A DNA stretch of 64,000 nt from an uncultured Bacilli bacterium. GTDB taxonomy: Bacteria; Bacillota_I; Bacilli_A; RF39; UBA660. Position 1 is the first letter of the stretch; each line of letters starts with the position of its first letter. The position numbers were made by a program, and so were the translations under genes. The notes under the pieces are model-generated. The model had not been told where the DNA came from. It made no database searches and saw nothing but the letters and a program-made list of their open reading frames with translations. Below, one piece after another: positions 641-46,166 of the stretch. The stretch is from the NCBI GenBank assembly GCA_910577505.1, contig CAJTLN010000002.1, forward strand, positions 114,740 to 178,739, written 5' to 3'.

Positions 641-2044
641 ATGATATGTCGAAATTGTGGTGTTAAACTTAACGAGGAAATTAAGAAATGTCCTTTTTGT
701 GGAACGAATCTTGATAAGTCAGAAGTAGTTGAGTTAGATTCAAAATCAGGTGAAATGGATTTAGAATTACCTATTTTAAAAAATGATGAAGAAATAGTTG
801 AAATTGATGATACAGATTATAATTTAACTGATAATGATTTTGAAATCGAATTAGATGAAAATGATGATAAAGATTTTGATGATAATATTGATATAGATGA
901 ACCAGCTATTGATAATAGTATATCTTTAGAAAAGACTAGAAGCATTTCAATGCTAGAAGACTCACAAGAACTAAATGATTTTTCTTTAATAGATGATATA
1001 AATAAACAAATTGAAAGTGTTAATGAAGAGGCAGAAGAAGCTACTGATGATAGAAAAGAAATTGAAATCGTAGAAGAAGAAAATCTTCCTGAAGATGAAA
1101 AAGAAAATGGGGAAGATCTAACTACTGATGCCAGTTTAAAGAAGAGAAAGAAAATATTAATTTTAACAGGGATTTTTTCACTTATTTTAGTTTTAATGAT
1201 ATTTGTAGGTTTATATGTATATAGTAAAACCGATAAAAAAAATATTGGTGATAATTATGTAGATGAAATGTCAAAAGCATTAGATAGTTATTATAATGGT
1301 GGAGATATTGATGATGTAATATATGTATTAGAAGATGTCAAAAAAGATCCAGATAAAATAAAAGAGGTTCAAGCTAAAACAAGAACAATTTGCGATAGTT
1401 GGGTATTATTATACTTTGATGAAAAAATAAATAATAGAGCTGAGTTTGATGAAATAAGTGTTAAATATAAAGATTTGTTAAATGGATTACATTCTTATGC
1501 AATAGTAAAAAATAATAATATTAGAATTAAGGCATTAACTGATACTGATTATGATGAATTATTAAAACAAGTTGATGATATTTATAGTGATAGTACAATA
1601 TTTTTTGATGCATTAGCTTATTATAATGAGAAAGATTATAATAGGGCTTATTATGATTTTGATAAAATAGAAGATGATAATAAATACTATGAAAAAGCTA
1701 TATCTTATAAAAGTATGATAATATCTAATATTTTGGATTTAATGAAAAATGATATTAAAAAGATAGAAGCTGGAATGGATGATTTAACTGATAATGAAAA
1801 ATTACAAAAATATGCACATATAGAAAGTATTATATTTGAATATAATAATGTTTATGTAAGTGTTAATCTTAGTGATGACAATACATATCAAGAATTATTG
1901 AGTACATATACTAGTAAAGTATCAGAGTATACGGATAAGGTTTCAAGCAGTAATGAAAATAAATTAAATGATAAAAATAATGAAAAAGAAGAGAATAGAA
2001 TTGATGAAAATCAAGAATTAAATGAAGAAGAAAAAAGTGAATAA
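641..2044 (+). CDS. hypothetical membrane protein: N-terminal zinc-ribbon (CxxC...CxxC), acidic low-complexity linker, one TM helix, C-terminal extracytoplasmic domain
   Basis: ORF of 467 aa. MICRNCGVKL...KKCPFCGTNL is a zinc-ribbon. A D/E-rich stretch follows, then the hydrophobic helix ILILTGIFSLILVLMIFVGLYVY. No recognisable catalytic motif. Confidence 0.5.
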   Translation: MICRNCGVKLNEEIKKCPFCGTNLDKSEVVELDSKSGEMDLELPILKNDEEIVEIDDTDYNLTDNDFEIELDENDDKDFDDNIDIDEPAIDNSISLEKTRSISMLEDSQELNDFSLIDDINKQIESVNEEAEEATDDRKEIEIVEEENLPEDEKENGEDLTTDASLKKRKKILILTGIFSLILVLMIFVGLYVYSKTDKKNIGDNYVDEMSKALDSYYNGGDIDDVIYVLEDVKKDPDKIKEVQAKTRTICDSWVLLYFDEKINNRAEFDEISVKYKDLLNGLHSYAIVKNNNIRIKALTDTDYDELLKQVDDIYSDSTIFFDALAYYNEKDYNRAYYDFDKIEDDNKYYEKAISYKSMIISNILDLMKNDIKKIEAGMDDLTDNEKLQKYAHIESIIFEYNNVYVSVNLSDDNTYQELLSTYTSKVSEYTDKVSSSNENKLNDKNNEKEENRIDENQELNEEEKSE

Positions 2045-2067: not shown

Positions 2068-2113
2068 TGTAAAAAAATTACAATTTATTGTATACTAATT
2101 ATAGGTGATAAAA

Positions 2114-3340
2114 ATGGAATTTACTGAACTTAAAGAAAAAGAATTTATGGAATTTGTAAATTCTAGACCAGAAAAGAATTTTTTTCAAACTATTATGATG
2201 AAAAAGAGAATAGAACTTGATGGTTATGAAGTTTATTTAGTTGGTGTTAAAGAAAAGAACAAAATTGTGGCTGCTAGTTTAATTGCAGAGACTGGACATT
2301 CTTTTATGGGAAAAAGAACTTTTGAAGCTTATAAAGGTTTTATTATGGATTATAGTAATAAAGAGCTTTTAGACTTTATGACTTTAGAAGTAAAAAAATT
2401 CTTAAAAGAAAAAAATGGTTTAAGATTAATAATAGATCCTTATATACCTAATGTTTCTAGAGATATGGATGCAAACATAATAGATGGTATAGATAATAGA
2501 CAAATAAAGGATTACTTATATAAATTAGGATATAAAGATCATGATGGAGCACAAGTAAAATGGTGTTATTGCTTAGACATAAATGGGAAAAAAAGCGATG
2601 AATTATTTAATGATTTTAGAAGTAGTACAAGAAATAACATAAGTAGAACGATATCTAAATTTAAATTAGAAATAAAAACTTTAAAGAAAGATGAACTTTC
2701 AGAGTTTAAAAAAGTTACTAGTGATACTTGTGATAGAAGAAGTTTTAGTGATAAAACATTAAAGTATTATGAAGAAATGTATGATTGTTTTGGAGACGAT
2801 GTTACATTTAAAATATGTCAGTTGAATTGTGATACATATATTAATTATTTAGAAGAAGAAACAACAGAAATGGTTAGAAGAATAAACGAGTTATCTGATT
2901 CTGCTTCTAATAAGAAGAAAAAAGAACAAATGAAAAAAGACATAGAGAATAATAAAAAGAAAGTAGAAGAAACTAAAAAATTAAAAGATGAAAAAGGTAA
3001 TATTATTCCACTTTCTGCAGCAATGTTTATTATGTATGGAGATGAAATAGTTTATTTGTTTAGTGGTTCATATGCTGAATTAATGAATTTTTGTGGTCAA
3101 TATAGATTACAATGGGAGATTATTAAATATGCAGCTGATAATGGATATAAAAGGTATAATTTTTATGGCATACAGGATGTATTTAATCCAGAAGGTAAAG
3201 ATAGAGGAGTTTATGAATTTAAAAAAGGTTTTGGTGGTTATGTAGAAGAGCTTCTTGGTTCTTTTGAAATAACAGTAAGTCCTATTAATAATCTATATGA
3301 ATTTTTAAGAAAAGTAAAAAAAGTGATTAAAAGAGGATAA
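2114..3340 (+). CDS. FemAB-family aminoacyltransferase (peptidoglycan interpeptide-bridge formation, FemA/FemB/FemX-like)
   Basis: Matches S. aureus FemA across the length. N-terminal MEFTELKEKEF...FFQT...GYEVYLVGVK aligns with FemA MKFTNLTAKEF...FTQT...GYETHLVGIK. LIIDPYIP aligns with LHIDPYLP. The central K/E-rich coiled-coil insert is present. C-terminal GSYAELMNFCGQYRLQWEIIKYAADNGYKRYNFYGI and GVYEFKKGFGGYVEE align with FemA GSYAVQWEMINYALNHGIDRYNFYGV and GVVKFKKGY. The ATG at 2114 has RBS taggtga; the tracked ORF starts at an upstream GTG. Confidence 0.85.
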   Translation: MEFTELKEKEFMEFVNSRPEKNFFQTIMMKKRIELDGYEVYLVGVKEKNKIVAASLIAETGHSFMGKRTFEAYKGFIMDYSNKELLDFMTLEVKKFLKEKNGLRLIIDPYIPNVSRDMDANIIDGIDNRQIKDYLYKLGYKDHDGAQVKWCYCLDINGKKSDELFNDFRSSTRNNISRTISKFKLEIKTLKKDELSEFKKVTSDTCDRRSFSDKTLKYYEEMYDCFGDDVTFKICQLNCDTYINYLEEETTEMVRRINELSDSASNKKKKEQMKKDIENNKKKVEETKKLKDEKGNIIPLSAAMFIMYGDEIVYLFSGSYAELMNFCGQYRLQWEIIKYAADNGYKRYNFYGIQDVFNPEGKDRGVYEFKKGFGGYVEELLGSFEITVSPINNLYEFLRKVKKVIKRG

Positions 3341-3417
3341 TTTTTATTATTCTTTTTTCTTTGTTTATTTATAAAGTTATGAGATAATGAGTATAGAAAT
3401 GATATGAAGTGATAGAT

Positions 3418-4107
3418 ATGGATAAGTATAAAATTTCATTTTATGTGTTGATGTTATTAATGATTTTTTTAATTGGTTTTAAATTGTGTGTTAATTTAAA
3501 AAATGAAGATAAGAATGAAATTAAGAGTAATTTAGAAGATGTACAAATTGGAAACTATATTATAAAAAAGAATAATAATTTTTCTTATCATAATACCAGT
3601 GAAAGAAATAAAAAAATAGAGTACATTGTAATTCATTATACAGGAGCAGAAACAAGTGCTTTATCATATGTGGAATTTTTTAATAATCCTTTATCTACGG
3701 ATGCTAGTGCAGATTATTTTGTAGATTATAATGGAGATATTTATCAATATAATTTAGATATTGATAATAGATATAGTTGGGCTGTTGGTGGAGATAATGA
3801 AAATAGTTTAGGCGGAAGTTTATATGGTATTGTAAACAATGAAAATAGTATAAGTATAGAACTTTGTGTAAGAAGTAATGGAGCTAAGGATGCAAATATG
3901 TATGGCTGGAGTTTTAACTCTGTAACTTTAGAAGCAAGTATTGAATTAGTTAAATATTTAATGGAAAAATATGGTATTTCAATTGATAATGTTATAAGAC
4001 ATTATGACGTGAATGGTAAGCTTTGTCCTGGAATTATTGGATGGAACGAAGATAGCGGTAGTGTAAATGAGTGGGAAAAGTTTAAAACAATGATATCTTT
4101 ACAATAA
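3418..4107 (+). CDS. N-acetylmuramoyl-L-alanine amidase (Amidase_2 / PGRP domain), N-terminally membrane-anchored
   Basis: N-terminal TM helix. YIVIHYTG...SADYFVD.NG.IYQ...SWAVGG...NSISIELC...VIRHYDVNGKLCPG are the conserved Amidase_2 motifs. Confidence 0.7.
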   Translation: MDKYKISFYVLMLLMIFLIGFKLCVNLKNEDKNEIKSNLEDVQIGNYIIKKNNNFSYHNTSERNKKIEYIVIHYTGAETSALSYVEFFNNPLSTDASADYFVDYNGDIYQYNLDIDNRYSWAVGGDNENSLGGSLYGIVNNENSISIELCVRSNGAKDANMYGWSFNSVTLEASIELVKYLMEKYGISIDNVIRHYDVNGKLCPGIIGWNEDSGSVNEWEKFKTMISLQ

Positions 4108-4188
4108 AATAAATATTTGTTATTCTATTATTAAGATAATAGTTGAATGTTATATGAAAAAAGTATTTGTAAATCTAAGGTGAATTTT

Positions 4189-5688
4189 ATGAAAAAGTTA
4201 TTGTGGTTTTTAGTTATATTAGTAAGTTTTATTGAAATAGTATATGCGGATGAATTTCCATTAATAAAGGATAGAGAAGTTGCTAGAGTTGAAATAAATG
4301 ATGAACTTTGGTTTACACCAGATCGTGTTCTTTATGAATTTGGTGAAAAATATTTCGTTTATGATTTTTTTCATACTAATTACATAACAATAGGAGAAAG
4401 ACCTAATTGGCGAGGAGATTCTTTAAAAAAATACACTTTTTATGATAAGAATTGGAAAGAAATTTTAGAACATTCTAATTCTAATTTTTTTGAAGGAGAT
4501 GGTAATTATTTTATAGTCAATAATAAGATTTATAATTTTTTCTATGATTATGTACTGAATATGACAGTTTATGATGAAGATTTTCAATTTAAGACCTACA
4601 CTTTAGATTTTTGGGATGATGTGGTACCTTATGATTTTGGTATAGTAGATGTTATAGCCGATGAAAGCAATATTTATATATTATTGAAAGACATAGATCT
4701 TTATAAAGAAATTAGATTGTATGATGATAATTCTAAATATGAAATATTTGATTTAGATTTGATAGAAGTTAAAGAAAGATTTCCAGAATATTATTATAGA
4801 TATAAAAAGATGAGTGAATCATATTTTATAGTTGGTAATAATATTTATGCCTTTTATAATGATGATGAAATGAAAATGACAATTTATAAAGAAAATTCCA
4901 ACCTTGAAATTTATAATTTAGATTTTTGGGATGATGTGGTACCTTATGATTTTGGCATAGTAGATGTTATAGCTGATGAAAGCAATATTTATATATTATT
5001 GAAAGACGCAGATATTTTTAAAGAAGTCAGATTATATGATGGTAATTCTAAATATGAAATATTTGATTTAGACTTGTTGGAAGTGGAAGAAAGATTTCCA
5101 AAATATTACAATGAAGGTAATCAAAGGGCTACTGAAGAAGTGTATTATGATTGTGTCGGTAATGATGCAGTAATAAGCGGAGATATATTAGTTTATATAG
5201 AGAATGGTAATGAAAAATTTAGAATAAAAAATGAAAAATATAAAAAATATGGTCAAGCACGAAAATATAATAATTTGATTATATCTATTGCTTATAAAGG
5301 TGACTCTTTTAAAAGTGATATTTTGTTTTATGATTTAAATGGTAACCTTATTGGAACTTTTGAACATAACGCTTATGATATTGATTTATTATTTAAGAAT
5401 AATCAACTAGTTGTAGCTACATTATATGTGGATGGAATATGCGATATTTTTACCGAAGGTTATTATTCTTATAATCATAATTGCTCTAGTGTTCTAATGA
5501 ATGAAATTTATGATTTAAAGCCTGAATTTTTGGGCATGGCATTAGGAACAAGTATAGAAGAAAAACCTGATATAGTAACTAATCCTGACACTTTAGGTAT
5601 GATTAATAGAATTATAATGCTTTGTTTTATAACTTCTATTGTTATTACAATATGTGTATTAGTTAAAAAGAAATTTAAGATAATATAA
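4189..5688 (+). CDS. secreted Tyr/Asp-rich surface protein, paralog A1, with sortase-like C-terminal sorting signal (NPDTLG + hydrophobic helix + KKKFKII)
   Basis: Start MKKLLWFLVILVSFIEIVYA (signal peptide) with RBS aaggtga. Contains an internal 105-aa tandem duplication. The C-terminal conserved core RFGQAK.YN.LII.I.YK...DILFYDLNGNL...EHNAYD.D.L..NNQLVVA.LYVDGIC is shared with 6308..7189 and 8628..9899. It ends ...NPDTLGMINRIIMLCFITSIVITICVLVKKKFKII. Confidence 0.6.
   Translation: MKKLLWFLVILVSFIEIVYADEFPLIKDREVARVEINDELWFTPDRVLYEFGEKYFVYDFFHTNYITIGERPNWRGDSLKKYTFYDKNWKEILEHSNSNFFEGDGNYFIVNNKIYNFFYDYVLNMTVYDEDFQFKTYTLDFWDDVVPYDFGIVDVIADESNIYILLKDIDLYKEIRLYDDNSKYEIFDLDLIEVKERFPEYYYRYKKMSESYFIVGNNIYAFYNDDEMKMTIYKENSNLEIYNLDFWDDVVPYDFGIVDVIADESNIYILLKDADIFKEVRLYDGNSKYEIFDLDLLEVEERFPKYYNEGNQRATEEVYYDCVGNDAVISGDILVYIENGNEKFRIKNEKYKKYGQARKYNNLIISIAYKGDSFKSDILFYDLNGNLIGTFEHNAYDIDLLFKNNQLVVATLYVDGICDIFTEGYYSYNHNCSSVLMNEIYDLKPEFLGMALGTSIEEKPDIVTNPDTLGMINRIIMLCFITSIVITICVLVKKKFKII
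4540..5170 (+). repeat. in-frame tandem duplication, two ~315-bp units, ~95% nucleotide identity in the core (4603-4800 vs 4918-5115)
   Basis: ttagatttttgggatgatgtggtaccttatgattttgg.atagtagatgttatagc.gatgaaagcaatatttatatattattgaaagac... occurs twice 315 bp apart. The encoded LDFWDDVVPYDFGIVDVIADESNIYILLKD...YEIFDLDL.EV.ERFP.YY is duplicated. Confidence 0.85.
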
Positions 5689-5712
5689 AACTTCCAATTG
5701 GAAGTTTTTTTG
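5687..5712 (+). terminator. rho-independent terminator
   Basis: aacttcc-aatt-ggaagtt hairpin followed by a T-run right after the stop. Confidence 0.65.
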
Positions 5713-5882: not shown

Positions 5883-6311
5883 ATGAAGAAGATTTTTTTA
5901 ATAATTTTATTATTCTTTGCGTTTGCTAATCTTGTTTTTGCGGAAGATGTTCCTTTAAAAAGAAACAAAGAAGTTGCTAGATCTGAAGTTAAAGATCATT
6001 TTAGATTGCCAGAAAGAAAGCTTTTTTATAATGATAATAAGTATTTTATTATAGATGAGTATGAATATGTAGAAGAAATAGGTGAGCGTGAAATATTACA
6101 TACTGGCGAAATGAATTCATATCTATATGACAATAATTGGAATAAGCAAAATGAACTTGTTGGTATAACATCAAGAGATGTTCGTCTATCTTCTGTTTTT
6201 TATATTGATGATTATTATTATAGTATAAGCCAAAATGCTTATTATTATTTCAGCGATAAATCTGTATTTGAAATAAGTAGAGTAGGTAAAATTTTGATAG
6301 AGATGTTATGA
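5883..6311 (+). CDS. N-terminal (signal peptide) fragment of surface-protein paralog A2; split from the next ORF by an ATGA overlap, possibly a disrupted gene
   Basis: RBS aaaggagat. MKKIFLIILLFFAFANLVFA followed by EDVPLKRNKEVARSEVKD, which is homologous to A1 residues ADEFPLIKDREVARVEIND. Ends at TGA overlapping the next ATG (6308). Confidence 0.45.
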   Translation: MKKIFLIILLFFAFANLVFAEDVPLKRNKEVARSEVKDHFRLPERKLFYNDNKYFIIDEYEYVEEIGEREILHTGEMNSYLYDNNWNKQNELVGITSRDVRLSSVFYIDDYYYSISQNAYYYFSDKSVFEISRVGKILIEML

Positions 6312-7189
6312 AACTTGAATATAATAGGAAGAATTATACTTTAAATATTAATGAGTTATATTTTGAAAATAATGAATATATTTATTTTCTTGTTAATGAA
6401 TTTTATTATGCTTATGTTGAGGGCAAAAACATACGTATTAATGAATTTAGAATATTAAGAATTGATAAAGACTTAAGTGACTATACTTTTTTTGATTTAG
6501 ATGACGAAGAAATTATTAACAATGCTCCAGATTATTTTAATCAGATTATTATACCTAATATAGCATCAGGATTAATAGATGGAGAGAGTAATTATTTTCT
6601 TGAGAATGATAGATTATTGATTAGTGGAGATACTTTAAGTTATTATGATAATCTTGAAAAAAAGTTTGAAATAAGCAGCGAAGATTATGTTAGATTTGGT
6701 CAGGCTAAAGTCTACAATGAATTAATAATTGCTATAGGATATAAAAATTATCCTAGAGGTTATGAGGGTGATTCTGATTCGCAAACTACTGGTCTTAATA
6801 ATAGTGATATTTTGCTTTTTGATTTGGAAGGAAATTTATTATCTAAATATGAACATAATGCTTATGATTTTGACTTTTCTTTGATTGATAATCAATTAAT
6901 AGTAGCTAATTTATATGTAGATGGTATTTGTAAAGGCGAATATAGAAGTGGTGACCTTGGAGGATATTTCTCTTATAATTCTACTTGTAAAGGTACGTTA
7001 CAAAATGAAATTTTTGATTTGGATGCTAAATTTTTAGGTATGGCTGTTAGTGAAGATAAAGTTGTTGACGATATAATAGAAAATCCTGAAACTTTACCTG
7101 ATATTAATGTGATAATTATTTTTAGTTTTATCTTTTCTATTATTATTACTTTTAGTTTATTAGTAAAGTCTAAAATAAAAAGAATATAA
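6308..7189 (+). CDS. C-terminal fragment of surface-protein paralog A2 with NPETLP + hydrophobic helix + KSKIKRI sorting-signal-like end
   Basis: Shares the conserved core RFGQAKVYNELIIAIGYK...DILLFDLEGNLL..YEHNAYDFDFSLIDNQLIVANLYVDGIC with A1 and A3. Ends ENPETLPDINVIIIFSFIFSIIITFSLLVKSKIKRI. Confidence 0.5.
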   Translation: MKLEYNRKNYTLNINELYFENNEYIYFLVNEFYYAYVEGKNIRINEFRILRIDKDLSDYTFFDLDDEEIINNAPDYFNQIIIPNIASGLIDGESNYFLENDRLLISGDTLSYYDNLEKKFEISSEDYVRFGQAKVYNELIIAIGYKNYPRGYEGDSDSQTTGLNNSDILLFDLEGNLLSKYEHNAYDFDFSLIDNQLIVANLYVDGICKGEYRSGDLGGYFSYNSTCKGTLQNEIFDLDAKFLGMAVSEDKVVDDIIENPETLPDINVIIIFSFIFSIIITFSLLVKSKIKRI

Positions 7190-7214: not shown

Positions 7215-7234
7215 TTATTAAAGGAATGGTATTG

Positions 7235-8539
7235 ATGAAAAAGGATATATTGGATAGGATTATTGGAATTTATTATGTTATTTTGATTATTGCTTTATGT
7301 TTTATGGGAGGATTATCTAGTTATGATGTATTTTATAGCGATTTTATATCTAATACGTTGATTGGATTTGGAATTGTAGCTTTAATCTTGTATGTCATTT
7401 ATAGAATTAGGAACAACTCTACAAGATATTGGGATTTGATTATACTTATTATGTCTTTTTTAGGATATCTGTCTTATTATTATGCTTTTGATAAAAAAGT
7501 GGCTTTAAAAGGATTTTTGCTTGGTAGAGAAGGTTTGCTTGTAATTTATACATATTACATGACGTTTTTACTTTCATCAGTTTTAAAAAATACAAAGATG
7601 AAAAATCGTATTTTAATGACTGTTACTATTTGTGGTGCTTTACAGGTTATATATGGTCTATTACAGGTTTTTAGAATATCTAATATATTCGGATTACCAA
7701 TTGTTGGTAATTGGAAATATGCATCTGGATTTGTATTTAATTCTAACTTTTTTGGAAGTTACATGGTTTTACTTAATGGATTATGGATGAGTAGATTTTT
7801 CTTCGATAAAGAGATAAATTATAAAAATTTTTTGATTTTATTTATATTTATAACAGGTTTATTAATTAGTGGCGCCATGAGTGCTGTTGTTGCTTTATTA
7901 GTAATGTTCTGTCTGGTTGTTTTTATCAACGTGATAAATAAACAAAATAATATAAGATTGTTTCTAAGAAAAATTGGCATGTATTTAGTTTCAATTTTAT
8001 TAATTTATTCAGTAATTGTATTATGGACAAAAAGTGATTTAACTAAGGATATAAAAGAATTATATACTCAATCAGTTAGTACAGTTTCTGGTAATGTTGA
8101 TGAATCATTTGGTACTGGAAGAATCTATATTTGGAAAGAAGCTTTGAAGTATTTACCTGATTATATTTATACTGGCATAGGAATAGATAATTTTGCTTAT
8201 ATAGGTCATAGAGATGGAACATATATTTATGATTCTCCTAAGAAAGATAATATTATATATAAAGCACACAATGAGTATTTACAAATATTAGTTACAGAAG
8301 GAATATTTATGTTTGTTACTTATTTGATATTTTTAGGAAGTATTTTTTATACTGGAGTGAAGAATATTAAAAATGAAAAAAATAAGAATTTGATTGTTTG
8401 TTCATTACTTTTAATGTTTATTGGTTATTCAGTACAAGCATTCTTCAATATAAGTATGACGCTTATTGCACCTATATTTTTTATGATTAGTGGAATGCTG
8501 GTGTCTTGTTGTGAGGAGAAAATAGTAAAGGAATGTTAA
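7235..8539 (+). CDS. Wzy_C-domain polytopic membrane protein (O-antigen ligase / O-oligosaccharyltransferase family), paralog W1
   Basis: About 10 predicted TM helices. Large loop with GTGRIYIWKEALKYLPDYIYTGIGIDNFAY...AHNEYLQILVTEGIFMF, matching the Wzy_C signature (R...W...G.G...HN.YL...E.G). ATG 7235 has better RBS spacing than ATG 7226. Confidence 0.7.
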   Translation: MKKDILDRIIGIYYVILIIALCFMGGLSSYDVFYSDFISNTLIGFGIVALILYVIYRIRNNSTRYWDLIILIMSFLGYLSYYYAFDKKVALKGFLLGREGLLVIYTYYMTFLLSSVLKNTKMKNRILMTVTICGALQVIYGLLQVFRISNIFGLPIVGNWKYASGFVFNSNFFGSYMVLLNGLWMSRFFFDKEINYKNFLILFIFITGLLISGAMSAVVALLVMFCLVVFINVINKQNNIRLFLRKIGMYLVSILLIYSVIVLWTKSDLTKDIKELYTQSVSTVSGNVDESFGTGRIYIWKEALKYLPDYIYTGIGIDNFAYIGHRDGTYIYDSPKKDNIIYKAHNEYLQILVTEGIFMFVTYLIFLGSIFYTGVKNIKNEKNKNLIVCSLLLMFIGYSVQAFFNISMTLIAPIFFMISGMLVSCCEEKIVKEC

Positions 8540-8627
8540 TGTCAAAATATGGTTACTTTACATTATAATTTTTTTATGTTATTCTTTTCTTGTAAGATAG
8601 TGTATTTCGTTGTATGAGGTGAATAAA

Positions 8628-9899
8628 ATGATAAAAAATAAAATGCCTTTTTTAGTAGGATTTATAGTTTTCTTTTTAGTATTTACTATAGCTTTAGCGT
8701 TAGAAAACGTATTAGAAAGCACAAATGTTGTTAGTGAAATTGATTTTGATGTTATGCAAATTTCAAAGAATAATGTTGTCTTTTATAATGATGGATATAT
8801 TAATTATTTGAATTATTTACAAGGTATTAATCATAGTAAAAAAATTCAGTATTTTGATTTGGATGGAGAATTAAAATCTGAAATAGATGTTCCTTTTTTT
8901 TATTATGGTAGCATGTTTGATGACATAAAAAGTGAGATGATTGTTTCTGATAAATATGTATATATTTTTGATAGAGAAGATTATAAACCACACTCATTTT
9001 CTCCAGTAACTAATGAAGATTTAATTATACATAAATATGATGATAGTTTAAATGAAATTTCTAGTATAAAATTATCAGATTTTGGGGTAAAGTACGAATC
9101 TTTATATTATGTTGATGATGATAATGATAATGTTTATATATATATTTCTAATGAAAGTAGTTCAAAAATTTATAATATAGATTCTGAATTTAAAGAAGTA
9201 ATTCCTATAGAAACTAGTGATGAAAATCTAAAAAAATATTTTCCATCTTTAATAATTACCCAAAACCTTCAATTGGATGAAGATGTGAATTTTAGTTTAT
9301 TGGATAAATGTTTATATTTAGAAAATATAAATAATTATGTAATAGGTTCTAAAAAAAGTATTGGTACTTTAGAAGATGAAGATACTAGTATTTCTTATTT
9401 GAAATATGTAGAAAATGACGAAGTCCTTTTTGAAATAGAAAATGAAAATTATATTTCTTTTTCTTATCCTAGAAAATATAATAATTTGATTTTTGTATTT
9501 GGTGGTTACAATGATACAATGATTGGTTATAAAAGCGATATTTTGGTTTATGATTTGTCTGGTAATTTATTGCAAATTGTGGAAAATAATTCTGTTAATA
9601 GGTCTTATGATATTATGGGTGATAAGTTAATTTTATCTAGAAATTATTTTGATGGTGAATTAGAAAGATTGTTAGAATATAATATATTCTCTACACATAA
9701 GGTGTATTTTTACAATGATATATATAAAATAAATGATGATTTTTTGGGAAGCTCAGTTACTGATAATCCTAAAGAAGAAAAGCCCATTTATGATATAAAG
9801 AATCCAGAAACGAAAGATATTGCTATTATATTAATATTATTACTTTCTGTTGTTTCTTTTATATATTTTATTATTACAAATAAAAAGAAGATTTGTTGA
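8628..9899 (+). CDS. secreted Tyr-rich surface protein, paralog A3, with NPETK + hydrophobic helix + NKKKIC C-terminus
   Basis: RBS gaggtg, then MIKNKMPFLVGFIVFFLVFTIALA signal peptide. Conserved core ...YNNLIFVFGGY...DILVYDLSGNLL..VENN... is shared with A1/A2. Ends KNPETKDIAIILILLLSVVSFIYFIITNKKKIC. Confidence 0.6.
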   Translation: MIKNKMPFLVGFIVFFLVFTIALALENVLESTNVVSEIDFDVMQISKNNVVFYNDGYINYLNYLQGINHSKKIQYFDLDGELKSEIDVPFFYYGSMFDDIKSEMIVSDKYVYIFDREDYKPHSFSPVTNEDLIIHKYDDSLNEISSIKLSDFGVKYESLYYVDDDNDNVYIYISNESSSKIYNIDSEFKEVIPIETSDENLKKYFPSLIITQNLQLDEDVNFSLLDKCLYLENINNYVIGSKKSIGTLEDEDTSISYLKYVENDEVLFEIENENYISFSYPRKYNNLIFVFGGYNDTMIGYKSDILVYDLSGNLLQIVENNSVNRSYDIMGDKLILSRNYFDGELERLLEYNIFSTHKVYFYNDIYKINDDFLGSSVTDNPKEEKPIYDIKNPETKDIAIILILLLSVVSFIYFIITNKKKIC

Positions 9900-9942: not shown

Positions 9943-11247
9943 ATGAGAGAAAAAATTTATTATATGTTGTTAGAAATATACTTAATATTAGTTTTGTTAT
10001 GGTTGTTTATTGGTTCAATATTAAATACTTATGAATATATAGATAGTACTTTAACATCTTTAGGATTATTTGTATTTGCAATACTTGGTATAATTTTATA
10101 TATATTTTATAAATTTATACAAAAGAAATATTCTCTTATGGATTATTTGATAGTAATGATGAGTTTATTAGGATATCTTTCTTATTGTAATGCTTTTGAT
10201 AAAAGAGTAGCTCTTATTGGATTTATAGATGGAAGAGAAGGATTGCTTGCAATTCTTTCTTATTATATGATTTTTCTTTTAAGTACTACTGTAAAAAATG
10301 AAAAAATAAGAAAAGATGTTTTTAAATTATTAACACTGATAGGGATTATATTTGTTTTTTATGGAGTATTGCAAATTTTTGGTATATTTTCTTTTTTAGG
10401 AATACCAATAGTTGGGCAGTGGAAATATGCTTCTAGTCTACTTAATAATTCTAATTTTATGGGGGCGTTTTGTGTTTTGATGAGTGGTTTATGGTTGGGA
10501 AAATATTTTTTTGAGGATATTGAAAAAATAAATTACAAATCATTAATTGTATTATTTATATTCGTATTAGGTTTATTAATTAGTGGAGCAATGAGTGCAT
10601 TTGTTGCTTTGATTGTGATGATGTTAATAATAATATTTATTTATTTTTTTGTATTTAGAAAAAGATTTAATATAAAAAAAGTTTTTTTAAAAGTTTTAAA
10701 TATTTTCTTAATTTTTTTAATAAGTTTCATTTTTGTAAATTGTTGTAATTCAAACGAATTAATAAAGGATGTAAGAATATTAAATAGTGAAGTTTTTAAT
10801 TCTGCTACATCTGGTTTGAAGAAAGAATATGGAACTGGTAGAGTACATATATGGAAAGAATCCTTAAAGTATTTCCCTAAATATATATGGACTGGAGTTG
10901 GGATAGATAATTTTATTTATTTAGGAAAGAATGAATTTGTTACTGATTATATATCTGGAGTAAAGTATTCTAAAGCACATAATGAATATTTACAGATATT
11001 ACTTACTGAAGGTATCTTTATGTTTGTTATATATTTGTTGTTTTTAGGGATAATTTTTATTAAATCATTATTATCTATTTTTAGAAATAAAAAAGTAAAT
11101 TATGTTGTATTATCACTATTTTTAGCTTATTTCGGATATTGTATTCAAGCTTTCTTTAATATAAGTATGATAAAAGTAGCTCCAATATTTTATATGATTA
11201 GTGGAATGCTGGTGTCTTGTGTTGAAGGAGAGAAATTGAAGTATTAA
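9943..11247 (+). CDS. Wzy_C-domain polytopic membrane protein (O-antigen ligase / O-OTase family), paralog W2
   Basis: Clear paralog of 7235..8539. Both share FDK.VAL.GF..GREGLL, SGAMSA.VAL.VM, GTGR.HIWKE.LKY.P.YI.TG.GIDNF.Y.G, AHNEYLQIL.TEGIFMFV, and a C-terminal ISGMLVSC. Confidence 0.7.
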   Translation: MREKIYYMLLEIYLILVLLWLFIGSILNTYEYIDSTLTSLGLFVFAILGIILYIFYKFIQKKYSLMDYLIVMMSLLGYLSYCNAFDKRVALIGFIDGREGLLAILSYYMIFLLSTTVKNEKIRKDVFKLLTLIGIIFVFYGVLQIFGIFSFLGIPIVGQWKYASSLLNNSNFMGAFCVLMSGLWLGKYFFEDIEKINYKSLIVLFIFVLGLLISGAMSAFVALIVMMLIIIFIYFFVFRKRFNIKKVFLKVLNIFLIFLISFIFVNCCNSNELIKDVRILNSEVFNSATSGLKKEYGTGRVHIWKESLKYFPKYIWTGVGIDNFIYLGKNEFVTDYISGVKYSKAHNEYLQILLTEGIFMFVIYLLFLGIIFIKSLLSIFRNKKVNYVVLSLFLAYFGYCIQAFFNISMIKVAPIFYMISGMLVSCVEGEKLKY

Positions 11248-11415: not shown

Positions 11416-12300
11416 ATGTCATTTATTTCTTTAATGAGAGATTTTACTTTTAAAACTTTATGGGTGATAGGGAGTGAAGATAGTAAAAAATTTTTGAATA
11501 GAATTGTTTTTGAATTAGTTGGATATGATACTAATGATTTTATTTTAGGAATGAATGAATTAGGAGCTAATAATTATAAAAGTTTAGCAAATAGGTTAGA
11601 CATATTACTTTGCTCTAAAGATAATTTGACTAAAATAAATGTAGAAATTAATAGTGAATATAAAATTATTATGGTAAATAAAAACGATTCTTATATATAT
11701 AAGTTAGCAGATGAATTTTATTCTGGTATGGAAAGTAGTGATAAATATAAGCAAGAAATTAAAGTAGAACAAATAAATATAAATGGGTTTCTTAATAGAG
11801 AAGATAAAAGTGTTACGATAGCTCATTATGTTTCACGTGATTTAGATAATGATTTGGTTAGGAATGGAGTTAAATTCCATGATGTGTATCTACCAAATGT
11901 GAAAGAAATGTGTTATGATGGTTGTGATGAAATATATAAAGATTTAGCTATGTTTATGGCAAAGAGCTATGAAGAGATGACGGAATATGCTAAAGGAAAT
12001 AAAGAGAGGGAAACCGTTATGAAAGATTTGAAAAGACTTGGTAGTGATGAAGAATATGTAGATTTATATGATCATGACGAATTTGATGCTATTTTATTAC
12101 AATCATATAAAGATGATGATAGGGCAGAAGGATTGGCGGAAGGACGTGCAGAAAGTCGAGCTGAAGGACGAGAAGAAGGGCGAACTGAAGGACGAGCCGA
12201 AGGGCATATTGAAGGAAAAAAAGAAAAGGAACTAGAAATTATTGATAAATTAAAAAGTAAAGGCTTAACTGAAGAAGAGATAAAAGATTTATTAAGTTAG
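11416..12300 (+). CDS. Rpn-family (YhgA-like, PD-(D/E)XK) recombination-promoting nuclease / putative transposase
   Basis: N-terminal LMRDFTFKTLW...FLNRIVFELVG (the D..FK.LF motif of the PDDEXK_2/transposase_31 family). C-terminal tandem AEGLAEGRAESRAEGREEGRTEGRAEGHIEG repeats are typical of the Rpn C-terminal domain. No inverted repeats are seen flanking it. Confidence 0.55.
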   Translation: MSFISLMRDFTFKTLWVIGSEDSKKFLNRIVFELVGYDTNDFILGMNELGANNYKSLANRLDILLCSKDNLTKINVEINSEYKIIMVNKNDSYIYKLADEFYSGMESSDKYKQEIKVEQININGFLNREDKSVTIAHYVSRDLDNDLVRNGVKFHDVYLPNVKEMCYDGCDEIYKDLAMFMAKSYEEMTEYAKGNKERETVMKDLKRLGSDEEYVDLYDHDEFDAILLQSYKDDDRAEGLAEGRAESRAEGREEGRTEGRAEGHIEGKKEKELEIIDKLKSKGLTEEEIKDLLS

Positions 12301-12328: not shown

Positions 12329-12406
12329 TATGTGATAAAGTATAAAAAATTGCAAAAAAAGATAAGTTTTTATATAATAATGAACAAGTTTAAGAGGTGT
12401 TTTGTT

Positions 12407-12958
12407 ATGAAAAATCTGAAGTTTGGCAAAAGTTTTTTAGCTGGTATTGTTGCAGCATCAATAGTTGGTTGCAGTCTGGGTGGATATCACATTTATAAAA
12501 GACATGAAATTAATAGAGTTAAAGGTTATCTGGAAGATTTTTTAACAGAAGATAATTATGTTGATTTGAGCAAGATAAGTACAGAATATGAAATAAGAGA
12601 CTTTAGTGGTGAAGCTTTAAAAAGTGCTTTAGAAGAGATGGATGTTGATTATGTTAGAATAACTGATTCTTATATTTATGATGAGGCTCATGTGGAGACA
12701 TTTACACAAATGAATGCTGTTAATTATAATAAAGAATTGTGGACGGATCAAAATGGTAACATTATGTATGAAATGTATGAGCCTGTTAGAATGTCAGATG
12801 GATATGGTGTTAGATATGAAATCCCAGAAGGATTTACATTAGAAGAAATTGATGTTATAGCAGAACCAATAAGGTATAGTGAACTTGATAGTAAAATCAT
12901 TTCAGTTAATGAAAATAATTATGAAAACTCTTATAGTTTGGAACTTAGAAGAAAATGA
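12407..12958 (+). CDS. hypothetical lipoprotein
   Basis: RBS aagagg. MKNLKFGKSFLAGIVAASIVGCS contains a lipobox (VGC). The tracked ORF start at 12332 is less likely. Confidence 0.5.
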   Translation: MKNLKFGKSFLAGIVAASIVGCSLGGYHIYKRHEINRVKGYLEDFLTEDNYVDLSKISTEYEIRDFSGEALKSALEEMDVDYVRITDSYIYDEAHVETFTQMNAVNYNKELWTDQNGNIMYEMYEPVRMSDGYGVRYEIPEGFTLEEIDVIAEPIRYSELDSKIISVNENNYENSYSLELRRK

Positions 12959-40156: not shown

Positions 40157-42439
40157 ATGGAAGATAAAGAATTAGAAAAGACTAAGCCTATTGAAGTTAT
40201 TAATGAAGAAATTGAAAGTCGTAGTGAACGATATAATGAAGATTTTAGCGATGACTTGTCTAGAGAACAAAAGTATAAAGATAAAATAGAAGTTGAAGAA
40301 AGAAAAGTAGAAGAAGAAGCTGCTGAAGAAGCTTTAGCCGAAAAAAATATTGCATTGGCAGAATCATATTTAGCAGAAGAAAGACAAGAAGAAGTTTTAG
40401 AAGAACCAGTTCTACAGAAAAAAATGAACTTGATAGATAAAATAAAAGCTAAATGGGAAGATATGGATAAAAAACAAAGAATAATGTTAATTGTGATTCT
40501 TGTTTTATTATTGATTTTAATATTAATATTTACAATTTTTATAGTTATTAGGTTAAATAAAAAAGATACTTTAGATAAGCCAGAGAAAAAAGTAGAAGAA
40601 AAAGCTCCAGAAATAACTGATAATTTCTATTATAAAGACGGTAAGTTATATTTTTTAGATGCTTCAGAAAAAGAAATAGGAACATATGAATGTGAAAATA
40701 AGGATTCTAAATTATGTTATGTGGCTAATAATAAATATAGGGATGATTTTGATGTTCCAAAATTAGAAGATGAAGATAAAGAAGAAATAGTTAATAGAAT
40801 GTCAATATATGAGGATAATTATGTTTTTGTTGTAGATACAAGTGATGAGAAGAATAAAGATACTAAGTTATACTCTATAAAAGATAATGAAGTTAAGGAT
40901 GCATATTCTGATGTTAAAGCTTATGATGATAATTATGTTATTGTAGCTAATACAGATAAGAAATATGGTTTAATAGAGATAAATGAAGGAATAAAAGAAG
41001 TTATAAAGAATAATTATGAATATTTAGGATTAATAGATGGAGAAGATAACCTAATTGCTAAAAATAAAAAAGGTTACATTGTTATTGATAAAAAGAATAA
41101 AGAATTAAGTTCTATATTTGATTCTAAGTATGAAATTAAATCGTATAATAATAATTTTGTAGTTGCTAAAGTAGGTAACGAATACTTAGCATTTAATTAT
41201 AAAAATGAAGTTATTGCTAGTGGATATAAATATATAACAGTAGCTGATGATTATGTTGTTGCAGCAAATGATGAGAAAAAAGTTTATATTTATGATGGTG
41301 AAAAAAATAAATATAATGAAGGTAATATATCTTTAAATAATGATAATTATGTTAAGACATATATTTATAATGATAAGGGAAGTATTCTAGAAATAAAGAG
41401 AAGCTTTGAAGTAACTGTTAAAGATACTGTAATAGAAATAGCTGTTTATAAAGAGGGAGAAGATAATCCGACTTATAAAAACATTGATATTGTTGAAGGA
41501 TTAGCAAATAAGAAAAATAAATATGTAAATTATTTTGAAAATAAATTGTATATTTATAAAGATTTAGATAAAACACAATTGTTAACAATTTATACTTGTG
41601 ATAATAAGAATTATATAACTAAAGAGTCAGATACTTTTGATTATTGTTTTATTGCTCAAGATGAAATATATGAAGATCACGATATGATGGAACAAGGATA
41701 TAAAGATAGAAAAGCTTTGGTTCCAATAATAAATAATAGATTTATCTTTATCAAAGATGGTAATAATACAGTAAAATTATATAATTTTGTTGAAGATAAA
41801 GTAATGGGAACATATACAAGTGTTAATTCTTATACTAATAATAATGATTATAGTGTTTCATATTTTGATGGTAAGATTGATATTGTAGGTGTAAATAAAA
41901 AAGGTAAATATGGGGTACTTACAATAGATGGTGATAATGTAAGGGCGAAATATACATTTGAATATAATAAGATAGAAAAAATGGAAGATAATTTTATTGC
42001 TCAAGATTCAAATAATAATTGGAAATTATTAAAGAGTGATGGAAATGAGTCCGAAAGTTTTAAAGGTAAAATAATGGGTTATTCTAAAGATATGAAGTAC
42101 TTTAAAATTAAGGTCGGCAATAATTATGTTGTATATAATGATAATAATGAACAAGTTAGTGTAGATATTCATTCTTATGTTGACTTATATAATGGCTATT
42201 ATGTTGGAGTAGACAAAGAAAAAAAATTGTATATATATGATTATCAAGGTGAAAAATTATCTACAGAAGGGATTAAATTAGGAGATTTTCCTTATGTTAA
42301 TACAAATAATCCTGCATATAAGGTAAAGAAGGTTGGCAATGACTTTGTAGTTTCTGTATATGATGGATCAAATTATATTGATTATAGTACAAAAGCAGAT
42401 AAAGTAGAGACTCCAGAAGAAAATTCGGAAGAATCATAA
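40157..42439 (+). CDS. type-II membrane protein: acidic coiled-coil cytoplasmic N-terminus, one TM helix, large extracytoplasmic WG/KWG-like repeat (beta-propeller-type) domain
   Basis: RBS aaaggtagg. TM helix IMLIVILVLLLILILIFTIFIVI. More than 10 degenerate ~35-45-aa repeats of the form (D/N)NYV.V....KKYG(L/V)I..NG..V(I/L), including NNNWKLLKSDGNE. Confidence 0.5.
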   Translation: MEDKELEKTKPIEVINEEIESRSERYNEDFSDDLSREQKYKDKIEVEERKVEEEAAEEALAEKNIALAESYLAEERQEEVLEEPVLQKKMNLIDKIKAKWEDMDKKQRIMLIVILVLLLILILIFTIFIVIRLNKKDTLDKPEKKVEEKAPEITDNFYYKDGKLYFLDASEKEIGTYECENKDSKLCYVANNKYRDDFDVPKLEDEDKEEIVNRMSIYEDNYVFVVDTSDEKNKDTKLYSIKDNEVKDAYSDVKAYDDNYVIVANTDKKYGLIEINEGIKEVIKNNYEYLGLIDGEDNLIAKNKKGYIVIDKKNKELSSIFDSKYEIKSYNNNFVVAKVGNEYLAFNYKNEVIASGYKYITVADDYVVAANDEKKVYIYDGEKNKYNEGNISLNNDNYVKTYIYNDKGSILEIKRSFEVTVKDTVIEIAVYKEGEDNPTYKNIDIVEGLANKKNKYVNYFENKLYIYKDLDKTQLLTIYTCDNKNYITKESDTFDYCFIAQDEIYEDHDMMEQGYKDRKALVPIINNRFIFIKDGNNTVKLYNFVEDKVMGTYTSVNSYTNNNDYSVSYFDGKIDIVGVNKKGKYGVLTIDGDNVRAKYTFEYNKIEKMEDNFIAQDSNNNWKLLKSDGNESESFKGKIMGYSKDMKYFKIKVGNNYVVYNDNNEQVSVDIHSYVDLYNGYYVGVDKEKKLYIYDYQGEKLSTEGIKLGDFPYVNTNNPAYKVKKVGNDFVVSVYDGSNYIDYSTKADKVETPEENSEES

Positions 42440-46152: not shown

Positions 46153-46166
46153 GTGGAGTGATAAAA

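Follow-up and report, generated by a model that had tools for sequence, protein, structure and literature searches.

An NPxT C-terminal signal in RF39 beta-propeller proteins whose genes are paired with WaaL-type ligase genes

Our results show that A1, A2 and A3, three paralogs encoded in the window (the whole 64,000-nucleotide stretch of DNA analysed here), belong to a lineage-specific family of secreted beta-propeller surface proteins that end in an NPxT motif, a transmembrane helix and a basic tail. This C-terminus is a genuine, family-defining tethering or sorting signal. Furthermore, an A gene and the Wzy_C gene that follows it form a two-gene module, which duplicates and diverges as a unit. 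Judged by its sequence and structural model, the partner is a WaaL-type (Wzy_C, GT-C-like) ligase with an invariant Arg and His. The interpretation that we favour, with a probability of about 40%, is that A and the WaaL-type ligase form a cognate pair, with A as the tethered acceptor.

The A genes in the window

The module and its neighbours comprise the following features:

2105..3340, + strand: FemAB-family peptidyltransferase, located upstream of the module in several related species
3409..4107, + strand: membrane-anchored Amidase_2 protein (N-acetylmuramoyl-L-alanine amidase), a neighbour kept in most loci
4147..5688, + strand: A1, secreted beta-propeller protein, probable start ATG at 4189 (MKKLLWF)
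5560..5688, + strand: C-terminal signal of A1, with linker, NPDT (5581-5592), LGMINR, helix, tail and stop codon
5687..5708, no strand: palindromic hairpin AAAACTTCCAATTGGAAGTTTT followed by a T run, terminator-like, after A1
5883..6311, + strand: N-terminal fragment of A2, with signal peptide and first blades
6308..7189, + strand: C-terminal fragment of A2, with NPET (7082-7093), transmembrane helix (7103-7165) and tail KSKIKRI
7226..8539, + strand: W1, Wzy_C / WaaL-like ligase, 36 nt 3' of A2, with R299 and H348-N349-E350 subfamily-invariant
8610..9899, + strand: A3, intact paralog, probable start ATG at 8628, with NPET (9801-9812) and tail NKKKIC
9943..11247, + strand: W2, Wzy_C / WaaL-like ligase, 43 nt 3' of A3, 46% identical to W1
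12332..12958, + strand: small exported protein with a lipobox-like IVGC, no Pfam match

The three C-termini quoted in an earlier note on this DNA match the sequence of A1, A2 and A3 exactly. All three end in NP(D/E)T, followed by 2-6 residues, a transmembrane helix and a Lys-rich tail. In A1, the hydrophobic helix consists of 18 residues (5611-5664) and the tail reads KKKFKII (5665-5685). The same gene contains an internal duplication of 287 nt (4507-4793 and 4822-5108). The terminator-like hairpin lies directly 3' of A1, which is therefore left without a Wzy_C gene of its own.

A2 is present in the window as two ORFs (5883..6311 and 6308..7189), broken by a frameshift where a run of four A at about 6284-6287 stands against five A in the near-identical strain L005. 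This run is the sole difference between the window and L005 in 1307 nt. The intact A2 orthologue (P0004) has 435 aa. The A genes look phase-variable.

In general, the A proteins start with a signal peptide, continue as a beta-propeller and reach the motif through a short linker. The AF2 model of A3 likewise predicts a signal peptide, a beta-propeller, a disordered linker, NPET, a transmembrane helix and a tail, with the helix beginning directly after Thr (H402-428). No family in NCBIfam or Pfam covers the A proteins, the source databases hold no names for them, and a comparison with solved structures gave no sequence match. A fold search returned generic beta-propellers only (TM about 0.4). 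Scans with the family alignment found one locus in genome contigs and two loci in metagenome contigs.

Conservation of the NPxT signal

In the + strand ORFs of the window of at least 120 aa (18,996 aa in total), NPxT occurred three times, against 1.4 times expected from composition. All three occurrences lie 32-35 residues from the ends of A1-A3, and the combination of the motif with a C-terminal transmembrane helix and a basic tail was found in no other ORF of the window.

Profile search gave 44 representatives of the family. The alignment of 42 sequences has a mean column identity of 17%; only G318, N398 and T401 are invariant, and P399 is conserved in more than 90%. The motif was found in about 47 distinct C-termini from at least 10 genomes, and the complete C-termini, taken from the sequence library and the related loci, all read NPxT except for one (NSET). 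Poor conservation of NPxT in orthologues had been named as evidence against a sorting signal. We found the opposite, since nothing in the family is more strongly conserved than NPxT, which sits in an otherwise variable, disordered linker. Its Thr is never replaced by Ser, and x is D, E or N.

The residue after Thr, called unusual in the earlier note, is indeed the least conserved position around the motif (IC 0.86 bits). It can be L, K, E, S, N, A, D, H or others, and it differs even within single genomes (L/K; R/E/G; S/L/K). Asp occupies P2' in 22 of the 49 C-termini, and a separate group carries 'TLPD'. Across the family, the motif is followed by 2-7 residues, the transmembrane helix and the basic tail; the hydrophobic core starts at a median of 2 residues after Thr, and the tail has a median length of 9.5 residues with 4 K/R. 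With a signal peptide at the N-terminus and the motif, a hydrophobic stretch and a basic tail at the other end, the tripartite layout is indeed, as was proposed, the one known from C-terminal sorting or anchoring signals.

The transmembrane helix and tail change no faster than the ectodomain (identities in group B of 0.31 and 0.24). The in-register identity of the helix is 0.27-0.39, compared to 0.14 for shuffles, and the ends of the tail are subtype-specific ([KR][KR]x[DE][FYI]-COOH or [FY][KR]xI-COOH). This position-specific conservation suggests that the mature protein keeps both elements.

Pairing of A with a WaaL-type ligase

Every genome examined has at least one A gene directly upstream of a co-oriented Wzy_C gene, at a distance of 36-76 nt. 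This applies to the window and to the loci L001-4/L006, L005, L007, L008/L011, L009, L010, L012, L013 and L015, in differing contexts: a glycosyltransferase cluster (L012), a neighbouring Polysacc_synt flippase (L009, L011), or dnaB/dnaI-fmt with a Wzy_C-SpoIIP fusion (L015). There are four A subtypes, each with its own Wzy_C subtype (Mantel r=0.68, p=2e-4). Paralogs inside one genome are more distant from each other than orthologues across genomes, and W2 is orthologous to the Wzy_C gene after A3-type genes in other genomes. A diverges much faster than its partner, with A identities of 36-51% where the Wzy_C identities are 60-73%. The A paralogs may also exceed the Wzy_C genes in number, for instance in L007 with six or seven A genes versus two Wzy_C genes, in which case several A proteins would need to share one ligase.

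A protein of about 183-187 aa after the last Wzy_C gene also occurs in L001, L005, L007 and L008; the L008 protein has N- and C-terminal sequence in common with the product of 12332..12958. By analogy with L011 and L015, ORFs 46143..47492 and 47520..51413 (GH3 C-terminal) were suspected to be a second module with an A/Wzy_C fusion. This candidate was rejected, as the ORFs contain neither an A-like C-terminus nor a Wzy_C part.

The identification of the two neighbours as Wzy_C proteins was borne out by Pfam (61.8 and 59.7 bits; cut-off 31.7). R299 and H348 are invariant in the 53 sequences of the Wzy_C subfamily, and none of their Cys residues is invariant or near-invariant. The sequence match to WaaL 7TPG (E=1.5e-8) spans the Arg and the His of AHN. 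Conserved Arg and His residues in an external loop are known from E. coli WaaL (R288, H338) and PglL (R298, H349) (PMC3643930). The AF2 model of W1 (pLDDT 92.6) has WaaL 7TPG as its best PDB match, and this was the only Foldseek PDB match to the Wzy_C model with E < 1e-3 (TM 0.53-0.57). A weak resemblance of the model to the SEDS proteins FtsW and RodA was seen as well. Searched with Pfam, both proteins gave Wzy_C only, without the PglL_A / PglL_B motifs (PF15864). PilO likewise lacks these motifs (PMC3643930), and hence their absence leaves O-OTase activity possible for Wzy_C.

The earlier note had also raised the possibility that the motif serves the neighbouring Wzy_C proteins. Their invariable adjacency to A, together with paired duplication and co-divergence, is strong circumstantial evidence for such a role. 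With an invariant Arg and His and no invariant Cys, sortase-like chemistry is impossible, and a Wzy_C protein that used the motif would do so as a glycan ligase. A Cys transpeptidase of the sortase or exosortase kind was rejected on the same grounds, as the Arg/His pattern and the fold are those of WaaL.

Search for a sortase

In agreement with the earlier note, no sortase was found in the window, either by tblastn with S. aureus SrtA and SrtB (best E=2.7) or by a Pfam scan of about 40 ORFs that included those of sortase size. ORF 40157..42439 was considered (SrtB tblastn E=14, 'TIYTC') but rejected, as it lacks a Pfam match to sortase and looks like a long membrane-anchored protein with repeats. 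A sortase was not found within 8-10 kb in 13 related loci from at least 10 genomes either, and about 214 kb of lineage DNA contained no LPXTG-type protein. Furthermore, ten C-termini compared with the curated sorting-signal HMMs of NCBIfam, at E up to 10, matched no srtB model. LPXTG_anchor (TIGR01167) reached 13.1 bits on the A C-termini, below its cut-off of 15.9, and over the transmembrane part only.

The proposed kinship with class-B sortase signals holds for the motif itself, where the conserved N, P and T occupy the same positions. Compared to the pentapeptide NPx[TS][NGS], the A family keeps N, P and T but not the conserved P1'. To our knowledge, the residue after Thr is G, N, A or S in all sortase classes characterised so far. 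Class-B sortases are usually encoded beside their substrates. Their motifs are NPQTN and NPKTG, and SrtB of B. anthracis requires Asp at P2' (DNPKTGDE) (PMC11987632). The genes srtA/B have been reported missing from RFN20 and ML615J-28 (PMC10868615); because these are the only lineages named, RF39 would by implication retain them.

Comparison with known systems

Class B sortase signals, such as NPQTN of S. aureus IsdC and NPKTG of B. anthracis IsdC, are similar to the A C-termini in that a secreted protein carries N-P-x-T before a helix and a basic tail. The acidic residue two positions after Thr (DNPKTGDE) is frequent in the A family too. In contrast, x is K or Q in class B signals, whereas it is D, E or N in the A family, where the fifth residue is free. 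The class B cargo is a NEAT protein, while that of the A family is a beta-propeller whose gene is always paired with a WaaL-like ligase gene. Curated HMMs exist for the class B signals; the A signal matches none of them, and no sortase was found nearby in the genomes examined.

The PglL, PilO and TfpO O-oligosaccharyltransferases are usually encoded beside the gene of a membrane-anchored acceptor (21 of 31 pglL homologues), and they modify a hydroxyl residue of this acceptor with an undecaprenyl-pyrophosphate (Und-PP)-linked glycan (PMC3643930). Pilin with PilO/TfpO and ComP with PglL/PglS are therefore comparable to A with Wzy_C, as each combines a Wzy_C enzyme with an adjacent, co-oriented membrane-anchored protein. 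However, these pairs are Gram-negative, and the pilin acceptor has an N-terminal helix and a site that is usually Ser. The candidate acceptor A differs from pilin by its C-terminal helix and by the invariant NPxT predicted at the membrane surface.

In the Gram-positive S. pneumoniae, the Wzy_C protein TacL joins a surface polymer to a membrane anchor (PMC5727136). TacL and WaaL (7TPG) have the same Pfam domain and Arg/His as W1 and W2, whose predicted fold matches WaaL. Yet, their acceptors are glycolipids (the LTA anchor and lipid A-core), whereas the co-inherited candidate acceptor found here is a protein. WsaB and WsfB of Geobacillus and Paenibacillus are Firmicute Wzy_C enzymes that transfer a long Und-PP-linked glycan onto Thr, Ser or Tyr of a surface protein. 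Unlike A, the protein that they modify belongs to the S-layer, is not tethered, has its gene elsewhere and lacks a juxtamembrane motif. In Actinomyces oris, LcpA glycosylates GspA while it is held by its C-terminal LPXTG signal, and SrtA then moves GspA to the wall. This offers a model in which glycosylation and sorting by a sortase both occur. It differs from our case in that the transferase is an LCP protein instead of Wzy_C and the signal is LPXTG; here, a sortase was not found in the loci searched.

A proposed tethered acceptor and its ligase

Because an A gene always lies directly upstream of a WaaL-type ligase gene, A may be the acceptor of this ligase rather than the bearer of an ordinary wall-anchoring signal. 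The A precursor would be exported via Sec and lose its signal peptide. The C-terminal helix and basic tail would stop transfer, so that the invariant Thr would come to lie just outside the membrane, a few residues from its outer face. The reaction centre of the WaaL-type enzyme, with Arg and His facing the Und-PP-linked donor, would be located at the same interface. The cognate ligase would recognise N-P-x-T and most likely move a glycan or glycopolymer from Und-PP onto the tethered protein, with the Thr hydroxyl as favoured acceptor. A would thereby become a protein membrane anchor or carrier for surface glycan. Three points in this scheme are inferences, namely that A is a substrate of the ligase, that NPxT serves the enzyme as recognition or acceptor site, and that A stays in the membrane. 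An N-glycosylation sequon at NPxT was rejected, because Pro directly after Asn rules it out.

Several results argue for an acceptor-ligase pair. The motif is the most conserved feature despite the low mean identity of 17%, and the residue after Thr is unconstrained, unlike in known sortase motifs. The helix and tail are conserved in register. A and Wzy_C are adjacent in all genomes examined, irrespective of context, and they show paired duplication and co-divergence, while the partner is WaaL-like by domain, residues and fold. PglL, PilO and TfpO with their adjacent acceptors, as well as TacL, provide precedents. The window and related loci gave no sortase, and no curated sorting-signal HMM matched. 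On the other hand, adjacency and co-divergence would also be expected if both proteins merely share a pathway. The Wzy_C proteins do not match the PglL-specific Pfam model, and A paralogs outnumber Wzy_C genes in L007.

A more far-reaching version, which we consider doubtful, is that NPxT-CTERM is the signal of an unrecognised anchoring system of RF39, in which a WaaL-type GT-C ligase rather than a sortase links an Und-PP glycopolymer to the invariant Thr at the membrane surface. The product would be a protein-anchored surface polymer, a proteinaceous counterpart of LTA or LPS, with simple-sequence repeats turning its protein part on and off. The RF39 Bacilli to which this version refers are described as wall-bearing.

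Alternative explanations

An alternative explanation might be a classical wall-sorting signal, with a distal class-B-like sortase that cuts after Thr and links A to the peptidoglycan cross-bridge built by the FemAB enzyme nearby. The reported retention of srtA/B in RF39 and the frequent Asp at P2' make this a possible reading, though at clearly less than even odds. The signal peptide and tripartite C-terminus are as expected of a sortase substrate, and conserved C-terminal signals do occur in true sortase substrates, for example in M proteins. Some of the evidence weighs against the acceptor-ligase pair and in favour of a sortase at the same time. Class-B signals are fixed at precisely N, P and T, of which the A family has N and T invariant and P above 90%. 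That Thr is never Ser fits a sortase P1 better than most O-glycosylation sequons, in which Ser is usually tolerated as well. Asp at P2' (22/49) and the 'TLPD' group echo the DNPKTGDE requirement of B. anthracis SrtB, and the lineage is RF39/CAG-1000-like, outside RFN20 and ML615J-28. Moreover, FemAB, which builds peptidoglycan cross-bridges, is encoded adjacent to the module in several species, and paralog arrays with phase variation are typical of wall-anchored surface proteins. In contrast, a sortase would have to tolerate a P1' that is unconstrained even inside one genome and a middle residue that is acidic or Asn instead of K or Q. It was not found within 8-10 kb in the genomes examined, where a class-B enzyme would usually be, and neither the absence of LPXTG-type proteins from about 214 kb of lineage DNA nor the sub-threshold scores of the srtB-signal and LPXTG HMMs are in its favour. 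The position-by-position conservation of the helix and tail also argues against it, and the obligatory pairing with Wzy_C is not accounted for by a sortase itself. Possibly, Wzy_C is linked for another reason, and might glycosylate the acidic, Ser/Thr-containing linker before anchoring, much like LcpA with GspA.

It is also conceivable, though we consider it unlikely, that A undergoes no covalent processing and serves as a bitopic subunit or regulator of Wzy_C. NPxT would then be a juxtamembrane helix cap or docking element that places the propeller over the ligase or polymerase, perhaps comparable to a PBP with RodA or FtsW. The helix that starts right after Thr in the AF2 model (H402-428) is consistent with such a role, as is N-P-[DE]-T, which fits the N-cap and N1-N3 pattern of a helix. 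In-register conservation of the helix and tail, the subtype-specific tail ends, the co-divergence of A and Wzy_C, and the weak likeness of Wzy_C to FtsW and RodA, both of which have a single-pass partner, point in the same direction. Yet, a helix cap would rarely need three invariant residues at 17% identity, because S, D or T could replace Asn. Furthermore, proteins that outnumber Wzy_C, are switched on and off and diverge much faster than Wzy_C (36-51% versus 60-73%) resemble variable cargo more than an essential subunit. Still another sorting enzyme encoded elsewhere (exosortase, rhombosortase or CPBP-type) might cut at NPxT and add a lipid or other anchor. The tripartite layout is common to PEP-CTERM, PGF-CTERM, GlyGly-CTERM and MYXO-CTERM (10.1101/2023.06.07.544157). 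The motif nearly abuts the helix, as in PEP-CTERM-type systems, and the signal is absent from NCBIfam. Nevertheless, we found no positive support for such an enzyme and no polytopic protease or transpeptidase candidate conserved near the module. Among the conserved neighbours, Wzy_C alone is polytopic, and it lacks the invariant Cys expected of the exosortase/archaeosortase type, where a polytopic enzyme with a catalytic Cys, plus Arg and His, is encoded with its targets. We consider this explanation very improbable.

Implications

C-terminal tripartite signals have repeatedly led to envelope-assembly enzymes, including sortase, exosortase, archaeosortase, rhombosortase and myxosortase. The NPxT signal described here has not been catalogued so far, and the enzyme that it goes with is a WaaL-type ligase instead of a known sorting enzyme. 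Should this ligase use the motif, Gram-positive bacteria would have a new way to couple a surface glycan to a membrane-tethered protein, and the compact sequon and enzyme pair might also serve glycoengineering. Should a distal sortase be responsible, the family would mark out a class-B-like enzyme that lacks P1' specificity. Either way, our results identify the main variable, apparently phase-switching surface antigens of RF39, a widespread uncultured gut lineage, and A with Wzy_C offers a concrete two-gene system that is open to testing.

The conserved C-terminal signal

The window has a G+C content of ~25%, and the genes listed in its first 12 kb all lie on the + strand. They include the three paralogous secreted surface proteins A1, A2 and A3 and two Wzy_C proteins (W1, W2), with gaps of 36 nt in the A2-W1 pair and 43 nt in the A3-W2 pair.

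Features at the start of the window (coordinates, strand where assigned, description)
641..2044, +, zinc-ribbon membrane protein
2105..3340, +, FemAB-family transferase
3409..4107, +, membrane-anchored Amidase_2
4147..5688, +, A1
5687-5708, terminator-like palindromic hairpin after A1
5883..6311 plus 6308..7189, +, A2, two ORFs
7226..8539, +, W1, Wzy_C protein
8610..9899, +, A3
9943..11247, +, W2, second Wzy_C protein
11416..12300, 294-aa ORF between W2 and the small exported protein
12332..12958, small exported protein, lipobox-like IVGC

The earlier note read the C-termini of A1-A3 as resembling sortase-B sorting signals, and its quotations of them are exact. In A1, NPDT (5581-5592) is followed by LGMINR, 18 hydrophobic residues and KKKFKII. 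A2 is split into two ORFs in the window. The + strand ORFs of the window (18,996 residues) contain three NPxT sites against 1.4 expected from composition. All three belong to A1, A2 and A3, 32-35 residues before the protein end, and motif, C-terminal helix and basic tail together are absent from every other ORF of the window.

Conservation is the decisive test of motif against chance. A word-indexed search gave only 5 relatives; a full profile search with HMMER, over 1.84 billion representatives, yielded 44, of which 27 had E <=1e-10. All complete C-termini carry NPxT, helix and basic tail, except that one has NSET in place of the motif. Given this conservation, refutation through loss of the motif in orthologues, as the earlier note envisaged, clearly fails. 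The observation is borne out and widened; its interpretation is supported in part. Of the columns aligned across 42 sequences (mean column identity 17%), just three never vary, one Gly and the motif's N and T, and P exceeds 90%. Across ~47 distinct C-termini (alignment members plus paralogs read from related loci), information content is 4.3, 4.0, 2.4 and 4.3 bits for N, P, x and T, with counts at x of D 19, E 18 and N 8. The residue after T had rightly been called unusual: in and around the motif, no other position is so poorly conserved (0.86 bits); the second residue after T is Asp in 22/49.

Neither Pfam nor NCBIfam has a family that the A proteins match, sequence comparison with solved structures gives no match, and the family is without a name in any source database. 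For A3, AlphaFold2 run on the 42-sequence alignment gave a model (pLDDT 83, pTM 0.81) that opens with a signal or anchor helix at the N-terminus; an all-beta domain and a low-confidence linker follow, then NPET at residues 398-401 and a helix (402-428) beginning directly after Thr. Foldseek searches of the PDB returned only generic beta-propellers (e.g. CylK, sialidases, PL24 lyases, BamB; TM ~0.4). A nearly invariant Cys pair (DGIC...C) is consistent with an extracytoplasmic domain. A1 is ~80 residues longer than A2 and A3 because of an internal direct duplication of 287 nt (4507-4793 and 4822-5108, 84% identity, spacing 315 nt), which means duplicated propeller blades.

Apparent phase variation of the A genes

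Compared with the near-identical strain L005 (GCA_964018015.1), the sole difference in 1307 nt of A2 is an A4 run replacing A5 (~6284-6287; L005 12100), which turns the gene off in the window; the intact form is the 435-aa protein P0004. Conversely, A3 is off in L005, with T7 where the window has T8 (8894-8901; L005 14707). In the single-copy species (loci L001-4, L006), many independent assemblies have A cluster members that break at the same (TA)n tract, ATTATATATATATTATTAG (L001 about 10820-10840); the changes there are frameshifts of about -2, +2 and +4 nt and, in frame, a 'YI' insertion of +6 nt. L007 and L009 likewise contain split A paralogs. From these sequences the A genes look phase-variable, and the homopolymer cases could be assembly error.

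The Wzy_C partner

In every genome examined (window, L001-4/L006, L005, L007, L008/L011, L009, L010, L012, L013, L015), a Wzy_C gene directly follows a co-oriented A gene, and L007 has six or seven A paralogs with two Wzy_C genes. The surroundings of the pair vary from locus to locus: it runs on into six glycosyltransferase genes in L012, adjoins a Polysacc_synt flippase in L009 and L011, and lies between dnaB/dnaI-like genes and fmt in L015. When each Wzy_C was matched to its preceding A gene, congruent subtypes emerged (win_1, L001, L007_1; win_2, L007_2; L011_1, L009_1, L013; L011_2, L009_2; win_1 and win_2 being the window pairs). The A and Wzy_C identity matrices are correlated (Mantel r=0.68, p=2e-4), and paralogs within a genome are further apart than orthologues across genomes, so the pair has duplicated and diverged as one unit. 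A evolves faster, with 36-51% identity where Wzy_C has 60-73%.

Both neighbours are Wzy_C proteins, as had been proposed (Pfam 60-62 bits, cut-off 31.7). Among solved structures, 7TPG, the O-antigen ligase WaaL, is closest in sequence (E=1.5e-8), in an alignment spanning the R-x-x-IW and AHN segments. All 53 subfamily members share R299, H348, N349 and E350, whereas they have no conserved Cys. The AF2 model (pLDDT 92.6) has a significant fold match to WaaL alone, with FtsW and RodA weak. Together these features mark the partner as a WaaL-type glycan ligase or polymerase; a Cys transpeptidase was rejected.

Relatives of the partner also occur fused to cell-wall enzymes, namely SpoIIP (engulfment amidase; L015 10551..13568), GH3 (NagZ-like; L011 1..1044), LicD and GT2. 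P0054, P0062 and P0108 are among the fusion proteins, and such fusions point to a role in wall or glycopolymer assembly.

Other genes around the module

Equivalents of the zinc-ribbon protein, which combines TM and extracellular domains, occur in L001, L005, L010 and L015, upstream of FemAB or near the A/Wzy_C module. The small exported protein has no Pfam match; L001, L005, L007 and L008 have a protein of ~183-187 aa after the last Wzy_C gene, in L008 with N- and C-terminal sequence in common, and it could be a third component. The 294-aa ORF, with an AEGR/AESR/EEGR repeat at its C-terminus and weak FliH-like matches, may be a mobile or decaying gene; by position only, it is matched in L005 by two ORFs (112 and 130 aa) and in other species by none. 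Further along, the product of 47520..51413 is an exported protein of 1297 aa; GH3 forms its C-terminal domain, and its long, internally repetitive N-terminal region is of unknown family.

Sorting signal or acceptor site

No sortase was found in the window, in agreement with the earlier note: S. aureus SrtA and SrtB as tblastn queries reached E=2.7 at best, and Pfam scans of ~40 ORFs, those of sortase size included, showed no sortase domain. The same queries gave nothing with E below 1 in 15 fetched loci, and Pfam annotation showed no sortase <=8-10 kb from A genes in other genomes. ORF 40157..42439 was rejected as a candidate, its 'TIYTC' being a chance mimic of the TLxTC signature outside any sortase domain; this 760-aa protein, which has no Pfam family, is acidic at its N-terminus and has a single TM helix and a long, beta-rich region of repeats. 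Non-redundant DNA of the lineage (~214 kb) encodes 24 distinct A-type C-termini but no LPXTG-type protein. A search of ten A C-termini against NCBIfam, at E up to 10, gave no match to a srtB-target model and none that passed a cut-off, and the NPxT signal is not present in current curated sorting-signal libraries.

Only one species of the genome collection has a relative, 'uncultured Bacilli bacterium MGBC127997'. The DnaK of the window shares 93% identity with that of Candidatus Coprovivens excrementavium, whose genus is placed in order RF39, family CAG-1000 (PMC8035907). A survey of these orders found srtA/B missing from RFN20 and ML615J-28, which implies retention in RF39 (PMC10868615), so a distal sortase may well exist.

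In subtype group A (11 sequences), identity is 0.40 in the ectodomain, 0.29 in the linker and 0.83 in NPxT, and in-register TM identity is 0.39, where shuffling within the helix gives 0.14±0.01. Group B (16 sequences) has 0.24 in the ectodomain, 0.16 in the linker and 0.31 after the motif, with TM identity of 0.27 against 0.145±0.007. Group A ends in [FY][KR]xI and group B in [KR][KR]x[DE][FYI]-COOH (-2 acidic in 13/16; -1 F, Y or I in 14/16). Hydrophobicity and charge are all that a cleaved and discarded signal requires; hence the pattern suggests that helix and tail are retained in mature A, with only moderate support because true sortase substrates also have conserved signals.

We consider it most probable, at roughly 40%, that A is a tethered acceptor glycosylated by its cognate WaaL-type ligase. 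Adjacency, paired duplication and co-divergence favour this, as do the apparent retention of helix and tail and the placing of Thr at the membrane surface, the site of WaaL-type chemistry. Dedicated pairs have precedents: PglL, PilO and TfpO O-oligosaccharyltransferases are Wzy_C proteins mostly encoded beside their membrane-anchored protein acceptor (21/31 for pglL homologues), and they cannot do without the corresponding Arg and His (PMC3643930). Another Wzy_C protein, pneumococcal TacL, joins teichoic acid to a membrane glycolipid (PMC5727136). However, the PglL-specific motifs are absent from W1 and W2, Thr-only specificity is unusual for such a sequon, and glycosylation of A is inferred.

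A class-B-like sortase acting on NPxT is a serious, if rather doubtful, alternative. The tripartite layout and the same three fixed positions as in class B signals stand from the original reading; Thr is never swapped for Ser, a FemAB gene is a neighbour, RF39 reportedly keeps sortases, and Asp is common at P2', where B. anthracis SrtB requires it (PMC11987632). Against it, P1' is unconstrained even inside one genome, the sorting-signal HMMs do not match, and none of the A modules examined has a sortase close by; the middle motif residue is acidic, and the obligatory ligase partner is left unexplained. This estimate includes a possible combined model in which tethered A is glycosylated and then sorted. 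In that order of events, A would resemble GspA of Actinomyces, a tethered protein that is glycosylated before sorting. A purely structural docking role for NPxT seems unlikely, and action of another, unknown sorting enzyme very improbable.

To our knowledge, a tripartite C-terminal signal coupled to a WaaL-type ligase is undescribed. The NPxT system fits best among sorting signals or, alternatively, among O-OTases paired with a dedicated acceptor.
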